Source of the DNA: Thermodesulfobacteriota bacterium
GTDB taxonomy: Bacteria > Desulfobacterota > Binatia > Bin18
Direction: 5' to 3'
NCBI GenBank assembly: GCA_964291405.2
Contig: OZ219926.1
Coordinates: forward strand, 4,800,001-4,864,000
DNA length: 64,000 nucleotides
Below, in pieces: positions 4,865-15,999 of this stretch. The notes below the pieces were generated by a model. It did no database searches and was not told the DNA's origin. It saw only the letters and a list, made by a program, of their open reading frames with translations. The stretch's first letter is position 1, and every line of letters starts with the position of its first letter. The translations under genes and the position numbers were made by a program.

Positions 4865-5807
4865 GGTCTATCCCCGCGTGTACGGGGGAACCATCGAAGT
4901 GGTCATGGCGCGGAGGCTGTGGACCGGTCTATCCCCGCGTGTACGGGGGAACCACTTGCCAGAAATTCGATCGAGAGCTTCCAATCGGTCTATCCCCGCG
5001 TGTACGGGGGAACCCCGGCTCCGGGCGGCGACGAGATCAAGCAGAGCGGTCTATCCCCGCGTGTACGGGGGAACCCCGGCTCCGGGCGGCGACGAGATCA
5101 AGCAGAGCGGTCTATCCCCGCGTGTACGGGGGAACCTATGTACCGTCGGCAGCAGGCGCTGGAACGGCGGGTCTATCCCCGCGTGTACGGGGGAACCAGT
5201 TTTACGCTGATAGGCGAGACCATGCATGGAGGTCTATCCCCGCGTGTACGGGGGAACCTTCTACTGGCTCTCATTTTTACTGCGTTGTATGGGTCTATCC
5301 CCGCGTGTACGGGGGAACCGACTTCGACCCCCCAGACTTCGACAGTGGCGACGGTCTATCCCCGCGTGTACGGGGGAACCTGGCTGTATCGTTTGATTCC
5401 ATCCCGAATGATGGGTCTATCCCCGCGTGTACGGGGGAACCCCCGATATAGTAAGTGTCAGAACCGACAGTGAGGGTCTATCCCCGCGTGTACGGGGGAA
5501 CCTCGGTTTCGTCGAGTGGGGAGCGGACGGGACGGGGTCTATCCCCGCGTGTACGGGGGAACCCTGGTCTGACCCACGGGGAGGGCGGATATGCCGGGTC
5601 TATCCCCGCGTGTACGGGGGAACCACACATAGCAGATTCCCTAGGTTATTGTAAATCGGTCTATCCCCGCGTGTACGGGGGAACCATATACGCCGGGTCT
5701 ACCGGCGGGGGGGTATGGGGTCTATCCCCGCGTGTACGGGGGAACCCGGCCGGTGCATTTTCAGGAGGCGATGGTGACGGGTCTATCCCCGCGTGTACGG
5801 GGGAACC
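4865..5807 (-). CRISPR. type I-E CRISPR array, 16 identical 28-nt repeats and 15 spacers of 33 nt
   Basis: GGTCTATCCCCGCGTGTACGGGGGAACC recurs every 61 nt from 4865 to 5780. The reverse complement GGTTCCCCCGTACACGCGGGGATAGACC matches the type I-E hairpin plus handle pattern, so transcription is inferred on the minus strand. Confidence 0.98.
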
Positions 5808-5888: not shown

Positions 5889-6194
5889 CTATTTGTCCTG
5901 CGTTTGGCGGGTTCGCCGCGATAAGATGAGGCCCTCTTGGTCCACCAACTCGACCGGTGGCGACCCCAGGACTCGCACGCCTTGCCCTCCCGGCTCACGT
6001 GGGTCCTGCCACGTCATGACAATAGATTGGCCTCCCAACTCCAGAAACCATTCCTCTATCACTGTCCAGACCCGCTCTCTGACACTACGAGAAAGCCTCG
6101 GAGCAGTGTACACTCCAGGGGCAATCTCAATCATGCAGGAGGCCAGAAACCCACGAGTGCGTGGAGCAACGTCACGTGTCACGACTACTGTCAT
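5889..6194 (-). CDS. cas2: type I-E Cas2
   Basis: MTVVVTRDV...RGFLASCMIEIAPGVY motif; 101 aa; follows cas1 and precedes the array. Confidence 0.95.
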   Translation of the reverse strand: MTVVVTRDVAPRTRGFLASCMIEIAPGVYTAPRLSRSVRERVWTVIEEWFLELGGQSIVMTWQDPREPGGQGVRVLGSPPVELVDQEGLILSRRTRQTQDK

Positions 6195-7053
6195 CGTCGT
6201 CTACCAATTTTATTATGCGATCAATCATCTTCGAGATGATCTTCATCTCTCTGAAACGGCGTCCCGCCAACCGCCGGACATGCCGTTCGAGCGGTATCTG
6301 TCCATTTTTGTAATGCTGGTTCACTGCCTCAAAGGCGACCGGGATGGTCACTTCGGTCCGGTAGAGATCTGCAATATCCAGACAAAAGGCAATAGCCGCA
6401 TCCTCGTGAATAAATCCCAGAGGAGGCAGCGTTCCGGTGGCAGCCACGGCAACGATGGCCGCAGCTTCGATTGCCGTGGCCGCGTGGTTAATGGCCTGGT
6501 TCGGAGCGTCAGCAATATCAGGGTTCTGCCGATCATAGCGGCGTCCATGCCACTCAATGCCGTACTTCTGGGCCAACAGGCTGTAGGCGGTTTTCATCCG
6601 CGCCCCTTCAATGCCCCGCAGGATGGATATGTCCTGTTCGGGTAACACTTCGCCCAAACGCCAGGCGTACATACGTCGGGCGATACGGAGACGCAACCTG
6701 TTGTCATTCCAGAGTTTTGCCTGCCGGCGCGCCCTTCTCGAATCGTTCGGGCCAAAGGGTTGGGCGCTATACATCCGCACCCCGTCCTCCCCAACGGCTA
6801 CAAGGCCGGTCCCGTGGCGGGCGAGAAGCCGGAACACGTCGTGACTCACGGTTGAGCCCGGTCCCAGCAGGATGAACGAGATATTCTGAAACGGAATGGC
6901 GTAATCGCCGGCAGCCATATCGGACGACCCGGCGGTCCGAAAATGCAGGGTGCCATCTTCCACGGTGAGATTCCCGCGTGCCAACCACAGCAGACCATGC
7001 CGGTCGGCGTGCGGAATCCGTGCGGCCTCAAGCCCTAATCGTCCTTTCAGCAC
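6172..7053 (-). CDS. cas1: type I-E Cas1
   Basis: LLGPGSTVSH, LRGIEGARMK, NQAINHA and LGFIH...FCLDIADLY motifs. Confidence 0.97.
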   Translation of the reverse strand: MLKGRLGLEAARIPHADRHGLLWLARGNLTVEDGTLHFRTAGSSDMAAGDYAIPFQNISFILLGPGSTVSHDVFRLLARHGTGLVAVGEDGVRMYSAQPFGPNDSRRARRQAKLWNDNRLRLRIARRMYAWRLGEVLPEQDISILRGIEGARMKTAYSLLAQKYGIEWHGRRYDRQNPDIADAPNQAINHAATAIEAAAIVAVAATGTLPPLGFIHEDAAIAFCLDIADLYRTEVTIPVAFEAVNQHYKNGQIPLERHVRRLAGRRFREMKIISKMIDRIIKLVDDDDSSRDT

Positions 7054-7081: not shown

Positions 7082-7825
7082 TCAGGCTGGCCGCAGCAGC
7101 AACATCCCGTAGCCGTAGGCGCGGTGCCGTCCGATGCCTTGGGCCAGTAAGGCAGTGAAGGCAGCGGCATCAGTAATGGTCAGGACGCCCTGCATGATCG
7201 CGTCCGGCCCTTCGCTGTGACGGGCGCGGAGCTTGCGCACGGCGCGGGTCCGCTGGAATGACCGTATTTCGGCAGACTCCAACCGCGCGCCATCTCGGCG
7301 GACGAACTGGTCGGCCAACCACTCGCGGTATACTTCTTCACGGCTGTAGGGCATCTCCTTCTTCGGATACTGCATTGCCTTCAGTTGAAAGGCGTCCCAT
7401 TCCCTGCCGGGTTGGCCTTCCGCATTGCGGCTGCGGCGCACGATAGGGCGAATCCGGGTCTCAAAGCCGAGTTGTTTGCCTGCCCGCCATTCCGTCGGCA
7501 TTGGTTTGCTGTTGATCGTGTGACCAGGAAGAATTTTTACCTGCAAGGGACAGGCGCATATATCAGCCGCTTCACGCAGAGCATCGGCCTCAGCGTGTCC
7601 ATAGCCGTATAATACGCCACACGTTGCGCCGCGCGGCACGATCAAGCGAAAGGGTTTGGGTGCCAGGTCGCCGAAGCATTCGGTGAGCAGACAGTGCATG
7701 GCGTGGTCCGTGTCCTGGAGGAGTCTGTCACCCATCCAGCGATGAAGGTCCCGTACCCTGACGTTGGCGCGAATCAGTTGAAGCGGAGCCGTGAGCGAAT
7801 CGGTTGACGTGGCAACATCCGTCAT
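7082..7825 (-). CDS. cas6e: Cas6e/Cse3 crRNA-processing endoribonuclease
   Basis: C-terminal Gly-rich loop GIGRHRAYGYGMLLL. Start placed at ATG 7825, just after the cas5 stop. Confidence 0.93.
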   Translation of the reverse strand: MTDVATSTDSLTAPLQLIRANVRVRDLHRWMGDRLLQDTDHAMHCLLTECFGDLAPKPFRLIVPRGATCGVLYGYGHAEADALREAADICACPLQVKILPGHTINSKPMPTEWRAGKQLGFETRIRPIVRRSRNAEGQPGREWDAFQLKAMQYPKKEMPYSREEVYREWLADQFVRRDGARLESAEIRSFQRTRAVRKLRARHSEGPDAIMQGVLTITDAAAFTALLAQGIGRHRAYGYGMLLLRPA

Positions 7826-7826
7826 T

Positions 7827-8573
7827 TTATCCATCCTTTGCCGTGGAAAATCGGCCATGCTCTATAGCTCCCTCACACACCAGTCGCCCGCCACCGTGCA
7901 GACCAGACAACCAGTTACGCTGGTCGGTGAGCATATAGCTGCGACTGGGCGTGATCTCTGCCTCGCCTTCACCGTCCGGCCAGAGCACCCGTATGGGGTC
8001 CTCACGCGATTCGTCAGTGACCAGCGGCGTGGCTAGCAGCGCGGCCAGGGCCGTGTCACCCTCGGCGAAATCACCGGCCAGAGAGCCCGACGGCAGGCAG
8101 GGCTTGCGTCCGATGAACAGCGGTCGGGCCGGCTCCTGCAAGGCTACGGCCAGACCGTCCAGGGTCGGGGTCTCCTCGGCCGGTTCCAGACGTAGCGCAA
8201 CGCTCACCCGCATATCGGCAAAATAGTCACGATAGCGCAGATGGGGCGCGTCATATGTCTTCGGCCCACCGTCGCGGCCTTCGGGGACTCCCCGCGTAGT
8301 CCAGCCTTGGTCTTTTTTACTCAACTGTGCCGTCTGAAAATCGGTGAGCCTCACACCGGTTGCCGGTTCGCGGTCAATGCGTGCAGCAAACACCAAGCGG
8401 TCTTGCAGGCGTTGATGCCGATCACGCTCGGTCCGGCGCCAGCCCAAGGCGTTGGCCAACAGTCCGGCCAGCATGGAGGCGGACGGAAACCAGCGGATAA
8501 CGCCATAGTTGTCGATGGTCTCCCCGCCGAAGGCCATGAGTGGGGCTTCAAGAGATACAATCAGATGGCGCAT
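7827..8573 (-). CDS. cas5: Cas5e
   Basis: LEAPLMAFG, PSASMLAGLLANALG, RYRDYFAD and LFIGRKPC motifs; no C-terminal HNH extension. Confidence 0.95.
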   Translation of the reverse strand: MRHLIVSLEAPLMAFGGETIDNYGVIRWFPSASMLAGLLANALGWRRTERDRHQRLQDRLVFAARIDREPATGVRLTDFQTAQLSKKDQGWTTRGVPEGRDGGPKTYDAPHLRYRDYFADMRVSVALRLEPAEETPTLDGLAVALQEPARPLFIGRKPCLPSGSLAGDFAEGDTALAALLATPLVTDESREDPIRVLWPDGEGEAEITPSRSYMLTDQRNWLSGLHGGGRLVCEGAIEHGRFSTAKDG

Positions 8574-8575
8574 CC

Positions 8576-9820
8576 CTACACCGCCTCACCGCTCAGTACT
8601 GCCCGCGACGCCCACGCCGCCAGGTCGTCCAGACAGAGGCGTTTGGCGTTAGGAATGTCGCAATCCTCAACCGACATCACCCTTCGGGTTTCCTTTGCGC
8701 CATAGGCAGCGTCCAGTTTGCTTAGATAGTCCGTCATCCGGGAGGTGGCGTCAGTCACCTGTGCCTCTGCTGGGCTGCGAAACGCATTCGCCAGACTACG
8801 AGGTTGGCGTTTCCCAGCCTCAATGAGCATCAGATCAGCGCAGGAATAGGGCGCGGTAGAACCGAGCTTCGCGCCGGGCGATACGGTGGCAATCAGATGA
8901 ACAAGGTGGTTGACCACCTTGCCAGCGAGGTCTTTATCCGCGCTTTCCCAGGCAGTGGAGTCACAGCCAGTCAGGTTGGAAATCAGCCCCGGTACGTCCA
9001 CCACGACATAGCCGTAGAACAGCCCAGCGGTCAGCTCCATGTCGCCGATGTGAGCCGCGCCGGCATCTTCGTCTTCGCGCTGGAGATCGTCCACGACTGA
9101 GAAGTAGTCGCTCTCGCTCTCCTCCCGGTGGACGGTAAAGGCGTGGGCGACATGAATAGCGGCGTCAATGTTGGCACCAGGATCAGATGTCACCATGCGG
9201 CCGAAGAGCGCTCCGACGAGTCCGCCGGGCAGATTCGTGCTTTTACGGAATACCTCGAAATTCTGAATTTCATCACCGAACATCTCAGTAGCGGCATTCC
9301 TGGCATCTCTCAGTTCGGTCTTGGCTTTTCCTGTGGCGGCTTTAATTTGTTCATCAGTCACCAACAAACCAGTAGCCACTTTCTGTGCGGCAATCTCGTC
9401 CCCGGAGTGTTTCTCACAGATCACCTTGGCTTTCTCGCGCAGGTATTCCACTTCGGGCAGCCCTAATAACAAAGGCTGACGACCCTTCTCCGTATCACCT
9501 GTCTTGCCGTACACTCCTACGTTAAAAGCTTTTTCAACTGCTTCAAGCACATCGCCAGAAATCTCTCCCGCCTCGCGTAGTGACTTTATGACTTCTCGCT
9601 CAACAACATTTCGGGAGCGCACCGCGTCGGGTTTAATGGCAGTCAACGCAAACTCATCCTTGGCCATGCGCCAGTGCCGCTTGAGACATTGCGACGAGAT
9701 ACGGGTACGTACCGCGTCGCCGAAGGGCATGCGCTTGGCCAAGCCGCTGTCGTCTCGGTTCAGCAGTGCGGCCGGGTAGGAATGAAGGGTGTGGATTTGC
9801 AGAAAACGTGGTGCGGTCAT
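8576..9820 (-). CDS. cas7: Cas7e/Cse4 backbone subunit
   Basis: LNRDDSGLAK, RISSQCLKRHWR, ALFGRM, VAHAFTVH and DYFSVVDDL motifs. Start moved to ATG 9820, which follows an AAGGAG RBS. Confidence 0.96.
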   Translation of the reverse strand: MTAPRFLQIHTLHSYPAALLNRDDSGLAKRMPFGDAVRTRISSQCLKRHWRMAKDEFALTAIKPDAVRSRNVVEREVIKSLREAGEISGDVLEAVEKAFNVGVYGKTGDTEKGRQPLLLGLPEVEYLREKAKVICEKHSGDEIAAQKVATGLLVTDEQIKAATGKAKTELRDARNAATEMFGDEIQNFEVFRKSTNLPGGLVGALFGRMVTSDPGANIDAAIHVAHAFTVHREESESDYFSVVDDLQREDEDAGAAHIGDMELTAGLFYGYVVVDVPGLISNLTGCDSTAWESADKDLAGKVVNHLVHLIATVSPGAKLGSTAPYSCADLMLIEAGKRQPRSLANAFRSPAEAQVTDATSRMTDYLSKLDAAYGAKETRRVMSVEDCDIPNAKRLCLDDLAAWASRAVLSGEAV

Positions 9821-9869
9821 GGTGAAAAACTCCTTTGTCTTTTTGCTGTTCCCAGTTGCGAAACTGTTT

Positions 9870-10799
9870 TTACTCATCGGTTGCTGAAGAACGACGCTGC
9901 TCCGCTCGGTAATACTCGCGGGAAATTTTTATTCGAGCCTCATCAGCCCGCTCTTCGTTATATCCATCGTTAAGGATGAACCAAGCCATTTCCCGCCAGT
10001 TGAAGGCACAGCCCTTGCTTGCCAGCATCCGAAATAGGCGCGCCAGCAAGCGGTGGAGCGTTGGTCCTCTCGCTGCAAGTAACGTTGCTAGTCGGTCTTC
10101 GCTGTAAAAGGCCGCTCCCGGTTGGTCCTGATTGCCCTCATACAATACCCGCCCAACCGGTTTTCTTGGATTATGAGCCAATACAGCACTATGAGACATC
10201 AGAGCTATGCCGTGCGTGATAAGTCCCCATTTTTTAATATCCAGGTTTCTGGGCATTCTACGCTGGCTTATGAGCTTCCAGAACACAGCGCTGTGAGGAT
10301 TGCTTGGGTCCATGCGCCGGAGGCTGGCTTTTTCTCCCGTTGTCATCTCCTTGGATTCAATCGACTCGATGGTGTTATCCATCACAACACCAAAGTTGGC
10401 AGGTATCGGACTGCTGGGCAGTTCAGGTAAAAGTTTGGTCACGTTTGGGTGTCCGGTCGTACCATTTTCGATAATGTCGTACAGTTCGCGTCGGTGCTCT
10501 GGGTTATCACCACGCCAAACCTTTGTAGTGATACCCATCTGTTTGAACGCTTCCAGCCAGTCTTCCTGTCCTTCTCCGAATGGGCTGGCGGCATCGCGCT
10601 TCAACTCTGCCACCAGCATTTCAAACTGCCCCGACTCTGGGTGCTGCCTAAACATAACGAGGTCGGGAAATCCCCTACCGCGCACTATGCGAAAACCCTC
10701 AACATGGAACGGTCTCCATCCATGGTGAATGGCTTCCTCATGTACCTCTTTGTTAAAGAACCACTCCCTATCCGTGTTGATGGATTGTTGCTCTGACAT
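9870..10799 (-). CDS. cse2: Cas11/Cse2 fused to an N-terminal VRR-NUC-like PD-(D/E)xK nuclease domain
   Basis: Occupies the cse2 slot between cas8e and cas7. The C-terminal ~175 aa have Cse2 motifs (ASLRR, SEDRLATLL, FNWREMA, ISREYY). The N-terminal ~113 aa have E12, GFPD46, AE65LK67, Q78xxW and VWR. AAGGAG RBS before the ATG. Confidence 0.88.
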   Translation of the reverse strand: MSEQQSINTDREWFFNKEVHEEAIHHGWRPFHVEGFRIVRGRGFPDLVMFRQHPESGQFEMLVAELKRDAASPFGEGQEDWLEAFKQMGITTKVWRGDNPEHRRELYDIIENGTTGHPNVTKLLPELPSSPIPANFGVVMDNTIESIESKEMTTGEKASLRRMDPSNPHSAVFWKLISQRRMPRNLDIKKWGLITHGIALMSHSAVLAHNPRKPVGRVLYEGNQDQPGAAFYSEDRLATLLAARGPTLHRLLARLFRMLASKGCAFNWREMAWFILNDGYNEERADEARIKISREYYRAEQRRSSATDE

Positions 10800-10801
10800 A
10801 C

Positions 10802-12385
10802 TTAATTCTCCTTCTGTCCTTCATCGAATAGAAACGGGAGCCCCTTCGCGCCGCGTATCCGACCCTCAAACAGCCCTTCTGCGTTGACACGGGCGCGGTA
10901 ACGATGGATAGCCGGACAGGGCAGGGCATCCTCGGCAGTGTGCAAAGTCCGACGAGCGTGGTCGATTACACCATCTGTGCCGTTCATCAGCCATGTGTTA
11001 CGGACTGTCTGCCGCTCTGCGCCATCGGCCTCAAATTCGGTTTGCAAATCGTCAAAGAAATTCACATCAACAAGGTCATCCAGCTTATTCAGCCAGGGAC
11101 GGGCCAGGGTGCGATGTTCGGGACTCGCCTTATCGCTGTCGCCTCGGGCGGCGAATACCTGGATGGCGTGGCTGAGAATGCGCTGAACGACGCTGACCTG
11201 TTCAATACGCTCCCGAGCAATCTTACCCAGGTCGTCCACCGCCGTGGTACGCCGGGTCATAGCACTGCCGACCGTTTTGGGCCGTAGGGGGATGATGCGC
11301 TCGTGATAGCCTTCGGTTTTGCCCTGACCGCGGACCATGCCGCGGGCTACCAGGTACATAGGTTTCGCAGAGTGTTGTTCCGCTGGTAGCGGACGTAATA
11401 GGGGTGGCCACTGCCAATCTTCTGAGGTGAGATAGTCGGTGACCCGTTTGTACGTAAAGCCGCCGCCGGCCAGTGTCAGAGGCAGGCCGTCTCTTTTTGT
11501 GTTGACGGGAACCCACGGGTCGCCGGTACGTCCTTTGAGTTCTTTACCCGCAATACGAGCGGCTTTGGTACTCGTTCTGATCCCATGCAAGACGCGGTTC
11601 GCATCGGAGCACAGCCGTATACGGCGGCAGATTTCGATATAGAACGGGTCAAGACGGTTCAGCAGCAGTGTTTCCGCAGGCGTTCCGTCCCACGACAGGG
11701 TCCACAGCAAATCTACGCCGTGGTCGGACATTTGATACTCGTCCATCAGTGTCGAGCGATATTCCAGCAGGGCGGTGATATCGCGCCCAATGTGGGCGCC
11801 CAATCTTGCGGAAGGGGTCAGGGTGAAGGCCGGGCGGCTGCCCAGCCCACCGTTCATGCGAGAGATGCCGTAATTGCCCGCGCCGCTGAATCCCTCCATC
11901 GTTTGCAACGTAACCAGCGCGAACAACCATTCGTCAGGAGCGGCCTGCGTCGCCACTGCGGCTTTCAGGTCGTGATTCTTGGAGGTGACGAGCATGTCCA
12001 GTTCGTCGGGTGTAGAGACCGTGCTCTTATAGTCCTTCTCGCGCTCCACAGAGGAGGCCGGGGGCTGCATGAAGGCGGGTTTAGTGAGGTCGACGACAAC
12101 CATCTGCCAGGGTTCGTCGTCGGGATAGTCCGGCGTCAACGCGCGAATAATACGTAGCCACTCTACGGCGTCACTAGGCGGCTCGGCCAGCCCAGATTGG
12201 TGCATCGCCATTGCGCCCAACTGCACCAGAAAGGCGTGCCAGGCGTGACGCTGGTGGGGCCGGAGCGCGGGAAAGGCGTCTACCTTGTCGTCAATCAGCA
12301 CGGCGTAGGTTTCGGGCAGGGAAGCGGAATATGTACTTTCCGCCACGTTAATCTGAATCAAGGGGTCAGTGAGGATGTGGAGCAT
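10802..12385 (-). CDS. cse1: Cas8e/Cse1 large subunit
   Basis: LRPHQRHAWHAFLVQL, AFMQP, GAGNYGISRMNGG, YIEICRRIRL and RGQGKTEGYHER motifs; 527 aa. Confidence 0.93.
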   Translation of the reverse strand: MLHILTDPLIQINVAESTYSASLPETYAVLIDDKVDAFPALRPHQRHAWHAFLVQLGAMAMHQSGLAEPPSDAVEWLRIIRALTPDYPDDEPWQMVVVDLTKPAFMQPPASSVEREKDYKSTVSTPDELDMLVTSKNHDLKAAVATQAAPDEWLFALVTLQTMEGFSGAGNYGISRMNGGLGSRPAFTLTPSARLGAHIGRDITALLEYRSTLMDEYQMSDHGVDLLWTLSWDGTPAETLLLNRLDPFYIEICRRIRLCSDANRVLHGIRTSTKAARIAGKELKGRTGDPWVPVNTKRDGLPLTLAGGGFTYKRVTDYLTSEDWQWPPLLRPLPAEQHSAKPMYLVARGMVRGQGKTEGYHERIIPLRPKTVGSAMTRRTTAVDDLGKIARERIEQVSVVQRILSHAIQVFAARGDSDKASPEHRTLARPWLNKLDDLVDVNFFDDLQTEFEADGAERQTVRNTWLMNGTDGVIDHARRTLHTAEDALPCPAIHRYRARVNAEGLFEGRIRGAKGLPFLFDEGQKEN

Positions 12386-12675
12386 ATCTCCTCCGGGCTA
12401 CTGCGATTGAAATTCTGTTTGGAAAACTCTGACTAGGATCGGCTTCTATGGACTCTTTCTGGTATACGTACTGTTTGCATCCCAAAGGCCCCTATCCAAA
12501 AACACATTTGGTGTCAATTTTCCCCCGGTGTATGATGTCCGCACTGCCAATGCATATGGTGATGTAACGAGCGCGGCTTGTACAATGGCTGTATTTGGTA
12601 TTACGATTCTGAGCAGAACAGTCTTTTCAGAAAGCTTCCTTGAACTTTTCCCCTACAGATGAACTGGGAAGGACT
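12386..12675. promoter_or_regulatory. divergent intergenic region expected to hold the promoters of the cascade operon and the TA pair
   Basis: AT-richer non-coding gap between divergently oriented cas8e and DUF433 genes; individual promoter elements not resolved. Confidence 0.4.
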
Positions 12676-12909
12676 ATGCAACCAGACTATACGGGAATCA
12701 TTACGGTCGAGCCGGGCAAGCGCGGTGGAAAACCCTGCATTCGCGGTCTGCGCATCACGGTCTACGACATTCTGGAGTATCTGGCATCCGGGATGACCGA
12801 GCCTGAAATCCTGGCCGATTTTCCCGACCTGACCTGCGAGGATATCCGGGCGTGTCTCGCCTTTGCCGCTGAGCGGGAGCGGCGCCTGGTATCCATTCCG
12901 CCAGAATGA
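12676..12909 (+). CDS. DUF433 family putative antitoxin
   Basis: ITVEPGKRGGKPCIRGLRITVYDILEYLASGM...ILADFPDLT.EDIRACLAFAA; ATG 12676 follows GAAGGA. Confidence 0.92.
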   Translation: MQPDYTGIITVEPGKRGGKPCIRGLRITVYDILEYLASGMTEPEILADFPDLTCEDIRACLAFAAERERRLVSIPPE

Positions 12910-13238
12910 GACTGTTGTTCGATCAGAATTTGTCCTGGCGTCTCAGAGAAGCATTGCAGGACCTGTATCCTCAATCGCTCCACGTCAGGGATGTGGGCCT
13001 TGCATCTGCCGTTGATGTCACAGTATGGGCCTACGCCAAAGAACACGGATTGGTGATTGTCTCGAAAGACGCTGATTTTCGGCATCTCGGCTTCACCTAC
13101 GGGCATCCGCCCAAAATCATTTGGATTCGTCGGGGGAATTGTTCAACCAGTGAGATTGAGGCGCTTCTTCGCAAACATCGCGATTCTGTGCTCACGTTCT
13201 ATGAGGACGAACAAGAGGTCGTCCTCGCCTTGGTTTGA
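12906..13238 (+). CDS. DUF5615 family PIN-like putative toxin
   Basis: MRLLFDQNLS, HVRDVGL, VIVSKDADF and PPKIIWIRRGN motifs; 4-nt ATGA overlap with the DUF433 gene. Confidence 0.9.
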   Translation: MRLLFDQNLSWRLREALQDLYPQSLHVRDVGLASAVDVTVWAYAKEHGLVIVSKDADFRHLGFTYGHPPKIIWIRRGNCSTSEIEALLRKHRDSVLTFYEDEQEVVLALV

Positions 13239-13317: not shown

Positions 13318-15999
13318 CTATACCCGCCGTAGTCCCAGCCGGTCGTACCGGAAACGGGACTCACCTATACGGAATGTAAAACCTCCGTCCTCCGGGTCGG
13401 GAACGACCGGCTGGTCGTCGGTCGCCTCGCCGGACAGACGAGGGGCCAGATGGTGGTGGATGGTCAACTGCGCAATGGCCTCTGCACCGAACGGGCTTAG
13501 CGCGGGTGGGTCCAACTCCACTTCAACGCCCTCGTCACCCAGCCGGGTGCGTATGCGTTCTTCGTCACTCCCGAATATAACCTCTCGGTTGTCCTCACCA
13601 AAAAAGGACTTGCCATAACGAACAAGGGCGCTTTGCGCGGTCAGGTTTTTGGCCAACGTCCCTCCTGTTATTTGTTTTTCGTGGTCTTGCCAGGCGTCGC
13701 CCAGTTCGTCGGTTATGGCTTTCAGGGCGTCGGGGTGGGTCGCTCGCTCCACGAGTTCCCGATTCATTTCCGGGATGCGCCATTCCGGGTGGTGGAGAAT
13801 CAGCCGTCGCGTTGCCTCAAGCACACGCAGGTCCTCGTAGACGAATCCGTGCGGTCCCAGGCCATTCCGACCGGGGCCTTTGGACAGCAGGGGTGAGAGG
13901 TCATCACCCTTTGGCATCAGGACAACGCAGGTCGGTGCTTCGTAGTCTGCGGGTCGGTCATCTCGTTGGTGGCGGTGCAGCCGACCGATGCGCTGGAGCA
14001 GCACGTCCATCGGGCACAAGTCGGTGATCAAAAGGTCTGCGTCTATGTCCAGCGATTGCTCCAAGGTCTGCGTCCCAACAATAAGGCATCCGCCGGTCGG
14101 TCGGTTTTTGCCTATCTGTTCCTCGATCGCTTTGTCCAGCAGGAGCCGGTCTTCACGGGCAAACCTGCCGTGGTGGAGGGTGAGAATACCGCAACAGGAG
14201 TAGAGTAGGTCACTTTCGCCCTGGACCATCCTTTTTTCCACTGTCTGCTGAGTGTCAATGGCATATTGCACGGTATTGCGTACCACCAGCACCTTGGCCC
14301 CGGCGCGGGCCGCGTGCAGGGCGCGTTCGGCCACTTGGGTGAAATCTCCCATGCCCGAGACAGCGTCAATCCGAACTGTCTTTTCCTTCCCGTTGCCATT
14401 CACGGCGATGGTGGTTTCGCCGGTGCAAGTCGTGATTGCGGGGTAGGGAGTCTGGATTGCGTCGTCCAACAATGGTGGAGTATTGGCGGCAGAGGAAGAT
14501 GTTGCGGCCAGCCAATGAGAACGTGACACGGAACCGAGTGTGGCAGATATCAGGAGGGCGTAGCCGCCGGCTTCGATATGGACACGCAGCAGGGCTTCGA
14601 TAATGACGCGCATATAGGGGTCGGAGGCGTGAACCTCGTCTACTACCAGCAGATTGCGCGACAGGCAGGCGGCGCGCATATGGGCGTGCTTGACCTTGAG
14701 TGCGGCCTGCATGGCTTGGTCAACTGTACCAACTGCGATCTGAGCTGCCAGGTAGCGCTTGGCGCTCTCGGCTGCCCAGCGACGTTTTTCGGTGAGGATA
14801 TCGGGATGATCGTCCCACCAGACTTTATAGTGCGGCAGATGCTTGCCTGTGGCGGCTCCGACACGGACATAACCGGGAACTGCCAGCACGGGCTCCGGGC
14901 CGACTTCTTCGGGGAAGAGCTTGTTAATGAATCGTGTGACGCGTGCGTGCATCTGGCTGGCTGCCGCACGGGTAGGCAGGGCAAAATACAATCCATCCAC
15001 CCGTCGGGCTTGATACAGATGGGCAAAACGCCACAGCGCAGCCTCGGTTTTCCCAGAGCCGGTTTCGGACTCGATGATGACCAAATGCTCGTCCAGCGGA
15101 ACCGCTCTTGTCGCCTGCTGAATGGGGTTGGGCGTTCCGTTGGGGATATCGAATAGGGTATCGAAATTCGGCAGGGCGGGTAGGACGTGAAAAGCGCTCC
15201 GCTGGCTTTCGATATTCAACCCGATTTCCGCGACCGCGCGCTGGGCGTTGTGCCGGGCAGTCTGCATATAGTCGTCACGCGGCTCAGCACAGAACGGGAA
15301 GTAGGTTTCGTCAGAACCAATCCAGTCGGCCAGCATGCACAAGCCCAAGAACATATGCTGAAAAGCCGGTGCCGACGGGAGCGACGGTCCGTTAGATGTC
15401 CAGGCCGCAGGAAACCAGTCTCGTACCAGCAGACCGATACGCTCTACACCACGCCGGGGATGCAGCGCCCCGAAGGAGCGCCAGATAGCGGGGTTCTTGG
15501 ACCGGGCCGCCTGCATGTTGAGCGGTCGGCCGTGGTGAGACAGCGCAGCCACGAACAAGGCGCAGACTGTCTCCCCGTCGCAGTTGTCCCAAGACTCGGT
15601 AGCGTCCCACCACCAGCCCAGGGCGTTGAAGAACCAGTCTGCGGTTTCGGTATCGTCACAGTTCAGAACCGGCGTCAGATCAACGATGTGTCCGGCGTGG
15701 CGGGGGTGGCGTGTATCTGTGGGAAAGTCGGCTTCCTGCCATATCCGTGTCTGAAAGCCTGTGTTGACTTTGCCTATGTCGTGTAAGGTTGCCAAGATCG
15801 CCAGCCGCGCTGTAATTACAGGGTCAATGTCGTCTAGCTTGCCAGCCTGTGCTAGGCGCTGTCGGATAGTCGGCTGGACCAGCAGGGCCTCAAAGCAGGC
15901 TCCCACATCGGCCATATGGTGTTCCAGCAGGTGGATACGCTGCGGGTTTTCGCGGTCGGATTTTGCCCAGAAGACCTGAGTATATGCTGCTGGCGGCAT
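13318..15999 (-). CDS. cas3: Cas3 HD nuclease-helicase
   Basis: HD domain (LEHH, LHDIGK, HHG, ADWIGS) and SF2 helicase motifs (TGSGKTE, DEVH, SAT, QSLDIDAD, QRIGRLHRH). Confidence 0.97.
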   Translation of the reverse strand: MPPAAYTQVFWAKSDRENPQRIHLLEHHMADVGACFEALLVQPTIRQRLAQAGKLDDIDPVITARLAILATLHDIGKVNTGFQTRIWQEADFPTDTRHPRHAGHIVDLTPVLNCDDTETADWFFNALGWWWDATESWDNCDGETVCALFVAALSHHGRPLNMQAARSKNPAIWRSFGALHPRRGVERIGLLVRDWFPAAWTSNGPSLPSAPAFQHMFLGLCMLADWIGSDETYFPFCAEPRDDYMQTARHNAQRAVAEIGLNIESQRSAFHVLPALPNFDTLFDIPNGTPNPIQQATRAVPLDEHLVIIESETGSGKTEAALWRFAHLYQARRVDGLYFALPTRAAASQMHARVTRFINKLFPEEVGPEPVLAVPGYVRVGAATGKHLPHYKVWWDDHPDILTEKRRWAAESAKRYLAAQIAVGTVDQAMQAALKVKHAHMRAACLSRNLLVVDEVHASDPYMRVIIEALLRVHIEAGGYALLISATLGSVSRSHWLAATSSSAANTPPLLDDAIQTPYPAITTCTGETTIAVNGNGKEKTVRIDAVSGMGDFTQVAERALHAARAGAKVLVVRNTVQYAIDTQQTVEKRMVQGESDLLYSCCGILTLHHGRFAREDRLLLDKAIEEQIGKNRPTGGCLIVGTQTLEQSLDIDADLLITDLCPMDVLLQRIGRLHRHQRDDRPADYEAPTCVVLMPKGDDLSPLLSKGPGRNGLGPHGFVYEDLRVLEATRRLILHHPEWRIPEMNRELVERATHPDALKAITDELGDAWQDHEKQITGGTLAKNLTAQSALVRYGKSFFGEDNREVIFGSDEERIRTRLGDEGVEVELDPPALSPFGAEAIAQLTIHHHLAPRLSGEATDDQPVVPDPEDGGFTFRIGESRFRYDRLGLRRV

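Follow-up and report, generated by a model that had tools for sequence, protein, structure and literature searches.

A candidate VRR-Nuc-type nuclease domain fused to Cas11e in a complete, Cas3-containing type I-E CRISPR-Cas locus

We analysed a stretch of 64,000 nucleotides, here called the window, from a Thermodesulfobacteriota bacterium (GTDB lineage Bacteria; Desulfobacterota; Binatia; Bin18; GenBank assembly GCA_964291405.2, contig OZ219926.1, positions 4,800,001 to 4,864,000 of the forward strand). The gene in the cas11 (cse2) position of its type I-E CRISPR-Cas operon encodes, in a single frame, a putative VRR-Nuc-type nuclease domain, a proline-rich linker and a Cas11e/Cse2 domain. Our preferred reading, with a probability of roughly 0.55, is that the N-terminal part would act as an active, Cascade-tethered, structure-selective VRR-Nuc at the R-loop, beside Cas3. 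The earlier note on this DNA had taken the fusion to be undescribed. However, Altae-Tran et al. 2023, Science (PMC10910872) report a VRR-NUC-Cas11 type I-E variant and depict it in their Fig. 6A, with 'VRR: PDDEXK nuclease domain' listed in the legend of Fig. 6, so that a claim of novelty is unsupported. The architecture is therefore already reported, and the window locus adds one more member to that variant, complete and with a cas3 gene, with no demonstrable difference from what the passages of that paper on the variant describe. The same passages give no experiment or mechanism for VRR-NUC-Cas11, and full-text literature searches, whose scope left most subscription journals outside, came upon the combination in this paper only and returned no functional study of the fusion.

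The open reading frame of 309 residues carries E12, GWRPFH at residues 27-32, GFPD with D46, LVAELK with E65 and K67, and Q78 within GQEDWLEAF, all at the positions that the earlier note had quoted. On the DNA, the codons of D46, E65 and K67 lie at 10662-10664, 10605-10607 and 10599-10601. The proline-rich stretch, HPNVTKLLPELPSSPIP, spans residues 117-133; the linker varies in sequence and length among homologues and ends in a conserved IPxNF motif, which is also similar to the beginning of the ordinary Cse2 encoded by a related locus, L024. Upstream, the stop codon of cas8e (10802-10804) is 2 nt ahead of the ATG. The AAGGAG hexamer that the earlier note read as a ribosome-binding site is indeed present, 8 nt ahead of the ATG, but it lies within the final codons of cas8e and not after its stop. 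At the other end of the gene, the start region of cas7 and the last 8 nt of the fused cas11 overlap (9870-9877), an arrangement that suggests translational coupling inside the Cascade operon.

The C-terminal part is recognised as Cse2 by three models, as had been expected from its sequence: Pfam CRISPR_Cse2 (PF09485) at residues 157-297 (E 4.5e-9, 37.3 bits against a cut-off of 24.6, covering model positions 2-137 of 137), NCBIfam casB_cse2 (TIGR02548) at residues 152-299 (48.3 bits against a cut-off of 28.5) and PADLOC Cas11e at residues 146-302 (E 3.8e-36). A sequence search of the PDB with the Cse2 part alone gave no match. As a proxy for the expected helical Cse2 fold, the ESM Atlas model of a homologue, P0031, was compared: its residues 168-333 align with a Cse2 cluster at a template-modelling (TM) score of 0.74 by target. 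The position of cas11 between cas8e and cas7 is the same in 25 of 25 related loci. Since Cas7e is single-copy in the window's genome, the fused protein is the sole small subunit available to this Cascade.

For the N-terminal domain, Pfam VRR_NUC (PF08774) gave a weak match, with 20.6 bits for the whole protein (E 1e-4) and 22.8 bits for residues 1-125, so that the gathering score of 23.8 was not reached. Across the family, 43 of the 66 fusion members had a match to the same model at E ≤ 0.01, the best one at 3.7e-5, and within the window's genome its only match is the fused gene. From 1.84 billion representative proteins, a profile built from 24 fusion N-domains retrieved 3799 at E ≤ 1e-3, 234 at E ≤ 1e-10. 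The best 150 matches comprise 16 proteins that include a Cse2 part and 134 small, stand-alone ones (median length 126 aa). This stand-alone family (~100-160 aa) is matched by Pfam VRR_NUC in 44 of 50 cases (best E 9.8e-10), and hhalign aligned the fusion N-domains to it over 105 columns with a probability of 100 (E 1.1e-39). The joint profile of fusion and stand-alone sequences reached the VRR-Nuc region of FAN1 over PD...ExK...Q (E 1.7e-4), as well as the solved stand-alone VRR-Nucs 4qbn, 4qbl and 4qbo (E 0.03-0.05). The ESM Atlas model of P0031, which is 71% identical, matched VRR_NUC/Hjc clusters over residues 28-140 with TM scores of 0.68-0.76 by query; scored by target, its TM values against VRR_NUC clusters were 0.62-0.88. 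The VRR-Nuc motif, in the passages of Pennell et al. 2014 (PMC4103454) that define it, consists of E-PD-EXK and a conserved Gln bonding the Lys, and the E12 / P45-D46 / E65-x-K67 / Q78 of the window protein equals it in full. Together with the conservation set out below, the profile matches support the assignment of residues ~1-113 to a VRR-Nuc-type (Hjc-like) PD-(D/E)xK domain, and with it the proposal of the earlier note that such a domain, a linker and Cse2 share one frame in a type I-E Cascade operon.

The homologue search returned 733 proteins at E ≤ 1e-3, of which the best 120 were examined. The N-domain was found in all 120, at full length in 98 and annotated from an internal Met in the other 22. 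A scan for related loci, with one genome per species, identified 25 loci in Candidatus Binatia (the nearest, at 90-93% identity), Dehalococcoidia/Chloroflexota and one Entotheonella. The domain stands in one frame with Cse2 in 24 of these, the remaining locus, L024, having an ordinary Cse2 of 203 aa; the fusion is widespread. E12, D46, E65, K67 and Q78 are invariant in all 24 fusion loci, at 42-94% identity. The best 120 homologues hold 127 domains, of which 28 are cut at the N-terminal end; of the 99 that span the five residues, 91 have the complete set and 8 are degenerate. P0052 carries just one domain, a degenerate one. Further out, a set of 15 fusions reaching down to 29% identity has E65 throughout and D46, K67 and Q78 in 14 members each, the sole departure being P0221. 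The ratio of non-synonymous to synonymous substitution rates (dN/dS) against the four nearest relatives is 0.06-0.18 for the N-domain and 0.07-0.17 for the Cse2 part, values that show purifying selection on the N-domain at the sequence level.

A FastTree phylogeny of the N-domain, midpoint-rooted and built from 149 domain rows (more than 80 of 113 profile positions each) from 155 proteins, placed 20 of 20 fusion tips within one clade of 24 with a support of 0.81. A single origin of the fusion is suggested, and no more than that, in view of the short domain and the moderate support. Within the host phylum the fusion was found in just 2 of 301 sampled genomes, the window's own and one of the same genus. 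A scan of metagenome contigs yielded four loci, one of them with the fusion. A tblastn search of phage records with the N-domain gave no match, nor did a scan of viral contigs reveal a relative.

Seven proteins of 373-460 aa contain two N-domains (P0007, P0008, P0009, P0011, P0013, P0038 and P0092). In these tandem forms the outer copy retains PD/ExK/Q, and in the Cse2-proximal copy D46 is replaced by H or R and E65 by A, T or S. Both copies of P0011, the sole tandem protein in the tree, are placed within the fusion clade, a position suggestive of internal duplication. The combination of one live and one dead copy would fit a dimeric working unit with selection for catalysis.

The joint architecture could be spurious if the join were misassembled, if two separate genes had been read as one, or if Cse2 were translated from an internal Met, as the annotations of the 22 homologues that begin at M49 or M61 of the domain (e.g. 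P0119 and P0087) might imply. To this explanation we give hardly any weight. An unbroken frame runs through the gene in 24 of 25 independent loci, and the junction is bridged by contigs from two runs of different studies: one from run X1 (1707 nt), possibly the source sample, covers 9600-10873 with 0 differences, and one from run X3 (1294 nt) bridges 10333-10963 with 47 differences. The fusion join is not an assembly artefact. Furthermore, the 'short' P0119 is a residue-for-residue match to an in-frame stretch of locus L010, whose frame is open upstream across the whole domain. At least its annotation, and seemingly those of the other internal-Met proteins, would be a start-codon miscall at a gene without an ATG start. 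None of the internal Met positions is conserved: at position 140, 68 of the 120 homologues have I, 44 have M and 6 have L, and M152 varies. The low dN/dS of the N-domain also speaks against an artefact. The X3 contig has an in-frame insertion of 21 nt at window position 10774, just after the gene start, which matches the variable N-terminal extensions of 7-30 residues found in many homologues.

Most fusion loci keep Cas3. A full-length cas3 stands next to cas8e in 18 of the 24, and in L013 it lies 14 kb upstream on the same chromosome. In L006, a 46-residue C-terminal remnant of cas3 (L006:8099-8236) directly precedes cas8e, and the open reading frames upstream of it matched no Pfam family. 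No cas3 was present in the flanks of L008, L011, L016 and L025. These four and L043, which comes from a genome of the window's own genus, are minimal loci comprising cas8e, fused cas11, cas7, cas5, cas6 and a mini-array; cas3, cas1 and cas2 are all lacking. Their mini-arrays of 4-14 repeats follow directly after the genes, and in L008, L011, L016 and L025 the repeats vary between copies; the loci with cas1-cas2 and the fusion have 16 to at least 97 repeats within the flank. The motif is kept in all five minimal loci, and between L016 and L043 dN/dS is 0.12 for the N-domain and 0.31 for the Cse2 part. Searching the chromosomes behind L016, L025 and L043 with a Cas3 protein query revealed no I-E cas3, and a search of the first two with the Cas3_HD family did not reveal one either. 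The genome behind L008 (G151) has a second, complete I-E locus, L042, on another contig (G151:C34:30000-41700), with an ordinary Cas11 whose gene fills a gap of ~630 nt, cas3, cas1, cas2 and an array of at least 65 repeats that uses the repeat sequence of the L008 array.

The window stands apart from these Cas3-less loci. Its cas3, 2.5 kb upstream of the fused gene, encodes a full-length match to the solved I-E Cas3 4q2c (E 8.4e-49) with the aligned motifs HHMADV, LHDIGK, SHHG and ADWIGSD. Absence of cas3, the mark of a Cas3-less nuclease Cascade, was found for L008, L011, L016, L025 and L043 only. The earlier note's idea of RNA-guided cutting independent of Cas3 does not suit the window, with its full-length, HD-motif-bearing Cas3, or the 18 of 24 relatives that keep the gene, although Cas3-less relatives do exist. 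Such cutting and the pre-nicking for Cas3 loading or priming, the note's other proposal, are hypothetical. As minor points, L008 and L011 have one trailer-end spacer in common, with 1 mismatch, while their other spacers differ; and an apparent frameshift near the start of cas8e in L013 (~8400) is either a real pseudogene or an assembly error. An association of the Cas3-less loci with transposons was considered and rejected: the flanks of L016 hold housekeeping genes (LigA, arginine decarboxylase and others) and gave no match to a transposase family.

Type I-E Cascade contains two copies of Cas11, as in the E. coli and T. fusca complexes, and they line the path of the displaced strand. For the fused protein, catalysis, dimerisation, the substrate and the division of labour with Cas3 are inferred. 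The N-domain would be a compact, metal-dependent, structure-selective endonuclease on a flexible linker of ~20 residues, which Cascade would carry to the R-loop formed as the CRISPR RNA (crRNA) pairs with its target. With two Cas11 per Cascade, two nuclease domains would then be present at the R-loop, beside the displaced strand and the two R-loop branch points, where they could pair into a homodimer as stand-alone VRR-Nucs do. In complete loci such as that of the window, this would mean a local, Cas3-independent cut on top of processive degradation by Cas3, and VRR-Nuc would perhaps be the sole nuclease of the minimal, Cas3-less relatives.

Several observations weigh against this reading. The VRR_NUC score of the window protein stays under the Pfam cut-off, and fusion-only queries of the PDB by sequence (the N-domain and two profiles) retrieved no VRR-Nuc structure, just chance or repeat-driven matches, e.g. 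to de novo TIM barrels and RNase H. The evidence for the fold comes from the ESM model of a homologue, not of the window protein, compared with other predicted models. As the Cas3 of the window looks fully functional, a second nuclease is, on present knowledge, unneeded. Among the minimal loci, cas7 is frameshifted in L025 (~11652) and L043 (~11589), which could reflect decay or sequencing error, and these two loci may be decaying instead of self-sufficient. Finally, the chromosome behind L016 (G154) has a gene for a Cas3b-type Cas3 1.2 Mb away, and that behind L043 (G110) gives a weak Cas3-like match of 38% identity over ~120 residues.

Other roles for the domain have to be set against a tethered nuclease working beside Cas3. 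VRR-Nuc might be the sole effector nuclease, with Cas3 dispensable as in the Cas5-HNH and Cas8-HNH systems and the Cas3 of the window redundant or on its way to being lost. This would account for the five minimal loci with their mini-arrays, for the failure to find an I-E cas3 in the chromosomes behind L016, L025 and L043, for the bare remnant in L006, and for the presence in G151 of a VRR-Nuc Cascade without cas3 separate from an ordinary-Cas11 locus with cas3. Nevertheless, it appears unlikely: 18 of 24 loci keep an adjoining full-length cas3 and L013 a more distant one, the Cas3 of the window is intact, cas7 is frameshifted in L025 and L043, and the satellite loci could borrow Cas3 in trans, the same repeat being found in both G151 arrays. 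Alternatively, the domain could serve spacer acquisition, either by cutting Cascade-marked DNA into prespacers for primed adaptation or by trimming them. To our knowledge, I-E systems lack a Cas4-type PD-(D/E)xK nuclease, for which VRR-Nuc would stand in; other adaptation nucleases belong to the same superfamily, and the loci that combine cas1-cas2 with the fusion have very large arrays. Such arrays are not specific to the fusion, however, as the ordinary-Cas11 locus of G151 shows, and a role confined to adaptation fits poorly because the five loci without cas1 and cas2 in their flanks keep the fusion with an intact motif and a constrained N-domain (dN/dS 0.12). We regard it as quite unlikely.

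PD-(D/E)xK folds are sometimes retained as binding modules, and a non-catalytic, DNA- or junction-binding domain that stabilises the R-loop or helps to load Cas3 would explain why the Cse2-proximal copy of the tandem forms persists despite the loss of D46 and E65. This is improbable, as a role limited to binding fits poorly with the invariance of the catalytic residues in 24 of 24 loci and their completeness in nearly all the domains that span them; even the tandem proteins each keep one copy with PD/ExK/Q. Very improbable, in our view, is that target binding triggers a collateral nuclease activity that stops the infected cell. Collateral cleavage has been reported for Cas8-HNH and Cas5-HNH Cascades, in the relevant part of PMC10910872, and two stand-alone VRR-Nucs, stNUC and saNUC, are described in PMC4103454 as partly non-specific, yet nothing in the sequence data speaks for such a response here, and a tethered, structure-selective enzyme is the simpler explanation.

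There is also a more novel proposal, which we consider possible but doubtful. VRR-Nuc-Cas11 Cascades might be self-sufficient RNA-guided cutters, in which the Cas11 pair would form a resolvase-like dimer at the R-loop (in the tandem forms, an intramolecular pseudo-dimer of one live and one dead copy) and make cuts at defined positions without Cas3. Complete loci would then run the local cut together with shredding by Cas3, possibly as insurance against Cas3-directed anti-CRISPRs, and in satellite loci without cas3, cas1 and cas2 the nuclease mode would be the only one, served by crRNAs with the repeat type of a resident canonical I-E system.

Among the closest known systems are the Cas5-HNH (I-E-like) and Cas8-HNH (I-F-like) Cascades, which likewise carry a nuclease domain on a Cascade subunit and for which precise RNA-guided DNA cutting has been shown, according to the sections of PMC10910872 and PMC11794572 that deal with them. 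Their HNH domain sits on Cas5 or Cas8, in one copy per complex, whereas here a PD-(D/E)xK domain sits on Cas11, which is present in two copies. Most HNH loci are without cas3, in contrast to the fusion loci described here. The activity of the HNH Cascades is demonstrated, while that of VRR-Nuc-Cas11 is a prediction. In size class and in its E-PD-ExK + Q motif, the N-domain resembles the stand-alone psNUC, stNUC and saNUC (PDB 4qbl, 4qbn and 4qbo), which the corresponding part of PMC4103454 describes as homodimers with cutting activity on four-way junctions and, to a lesser extent, on forks and flaps, with some non-specific nuclease activity of stNUC and saNUC in addition. Those enzymes are free homodimers, whereas the domain of the window is tethered to Cas11. 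It shares with FAN1 the placement of a VRR-Nuc domain inside a larger DNA-recognising protein. FAN1 cuts 5' flaps and is monomeric because an insertion blocks its dimer face (PMC4103454); the domain of the window, unlike FAN1 with its insertion, is compact, with 105 of its 113 positions aligned to the stand-alone forms. With canonical Cas11e/Cse2 (CasB) the fused protein has in common a gene position between cas8e and cas7 and a match of its last 176 residues to full Cse2 models; canonical Cse2, for instance in L024 or in the second I-E locus of G151, has no catalytic domain.

If the domain is active, type I-E Cascade would gain a second, built-in cut at a defined place, made by a PD-(D/E)xK junction-nuclease fold as opposed to the HNH fold of the Cascade variants that have already been made into editing tools. 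It would, besides, offer an example from nature of a surveillance complex whose two small subunits together build a dimeric, structure-selective nuclease. The family provides comparative handles for experiments: loci in which Cas3 is mostly kept, satellite loci without it, one of them beside a canonical I-E system, and tandem forms with a live and a dead copy. In the parts of the literature that treat it, the published variant has so far been covered in one sentence of print.

The coordinates of the fused gene and its surroundings are given in Table 1. All eight Cas proteins are typed as subtype I-E by PADLOC, and Pfam and NCBIfam agree for the signature genes. The type I-E signature set of cas3, cas8e, cas11e, cas7e, cas5e and cas6e is present in full, together with cas1e-cas2e and an adjoining array.

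Table 1. Features of the type I-E locus in the window. Coordinates of the array are those of the 26-nt repeat core used as query.
Feature	Coordinates	Strand	Details
Fused gene, VRR-Nuc + linker + Cas11e/Cse2	9870..10799	-	ATG start, 309 aa + stop
Putative VRR-Nuc-type PD-(D/E)xK domain	10461..10799	-	residues 1-113; E12, P45-D46, E65-x-K67, Q78
Pro-rich linker	10401..10460	-	residues 114-133
Cas11e/Cse2 domain	9873..10400	-	residues 134-309
AAGGAG Shine-Dalgarno-like hexamer	10808..10813	-	read from DNA
cas3 (type I-E, HD nuclease + helicase, 893 aa)	13318..15999	-	Pfam Cas3_HD 6.9e-30, Cas3-like_C_2, DEAD; PADLOC Cas3e 2.5e-170
cas8e/cse1 (527 aa)	10802..12385	-	PADLOC Cas8e 8.8e-159; NCBIfam casA_cse1 72.1 bits vs cut-off 70.05
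cas7e (433 aa)	8576..9877	-	Pfam Cas_CT1975 2.9e-96; PADLOC Cas7e
cas5e	7827..8573	-	Pfam Cas_Cas5d 1.4e-30; PADLOC Cas5e 5.1e-52
cas6e	7082..7858	-	Pfam CRISPR_assoc 2.3e-29; PADLOC Cas6e
cas1e	6172..7053	-	Pfam Cas_Cas1; PADLOC Cas1e 1.6e-142
cas2e	5889..6194	-	Pfam Cas_Cas2CT1978 1.3e-24; PADLOC Cas2e 2e-40
CRISPR array, 16 identical repeats, 61-bp period	4866..5806	-	26-nt core search
DUF433 gene	12640-12909	+	E 4.8e-26
DUF5615/PIN-like gene	12906-13238	+	E 1.7e-35

The search with the repeat core gave 16 matches with 0 mismatches, against 0 expected by chance, and the period fits the I-E form of repeats of ~29 nt and spacers of ~32 nt. The array was assigned to the minus strand because its reverse complement has the I-E-like end ...CGGGGATAGACC. 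For cas8e there was no Pfam match. A scan of the window for promoters and terminators returned fewer sites than shuffled sequence and was uninformative, and no tRNA genes were found in the window. Elsewhere in the same genome, outside the window, a second, weak Cas3_HD match (25.4 bits) lies in an open frame of 1113 aa (G000:C3:2765198-2765692) and may be part of a different type of CRISPR-Cas system.

The 930-bp gap between cas3 and cas8e is conserved on account of two small protein genes, and an Rfam search of this conserved spacer gave no match. The two genes, a DUF433 and a DUF5615/PIN-like gene, lie on the opposite strand with an overlap of 4 nt and look like a toxin-antitoxin-type pair. 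In other relatives, e.g. L014 and L022, cas3 directly adjoins cas8e. The pair is kept in L002 and L007 at 76-91% nucleotide identity, and the DUF433 part only is found in L003 and L016.

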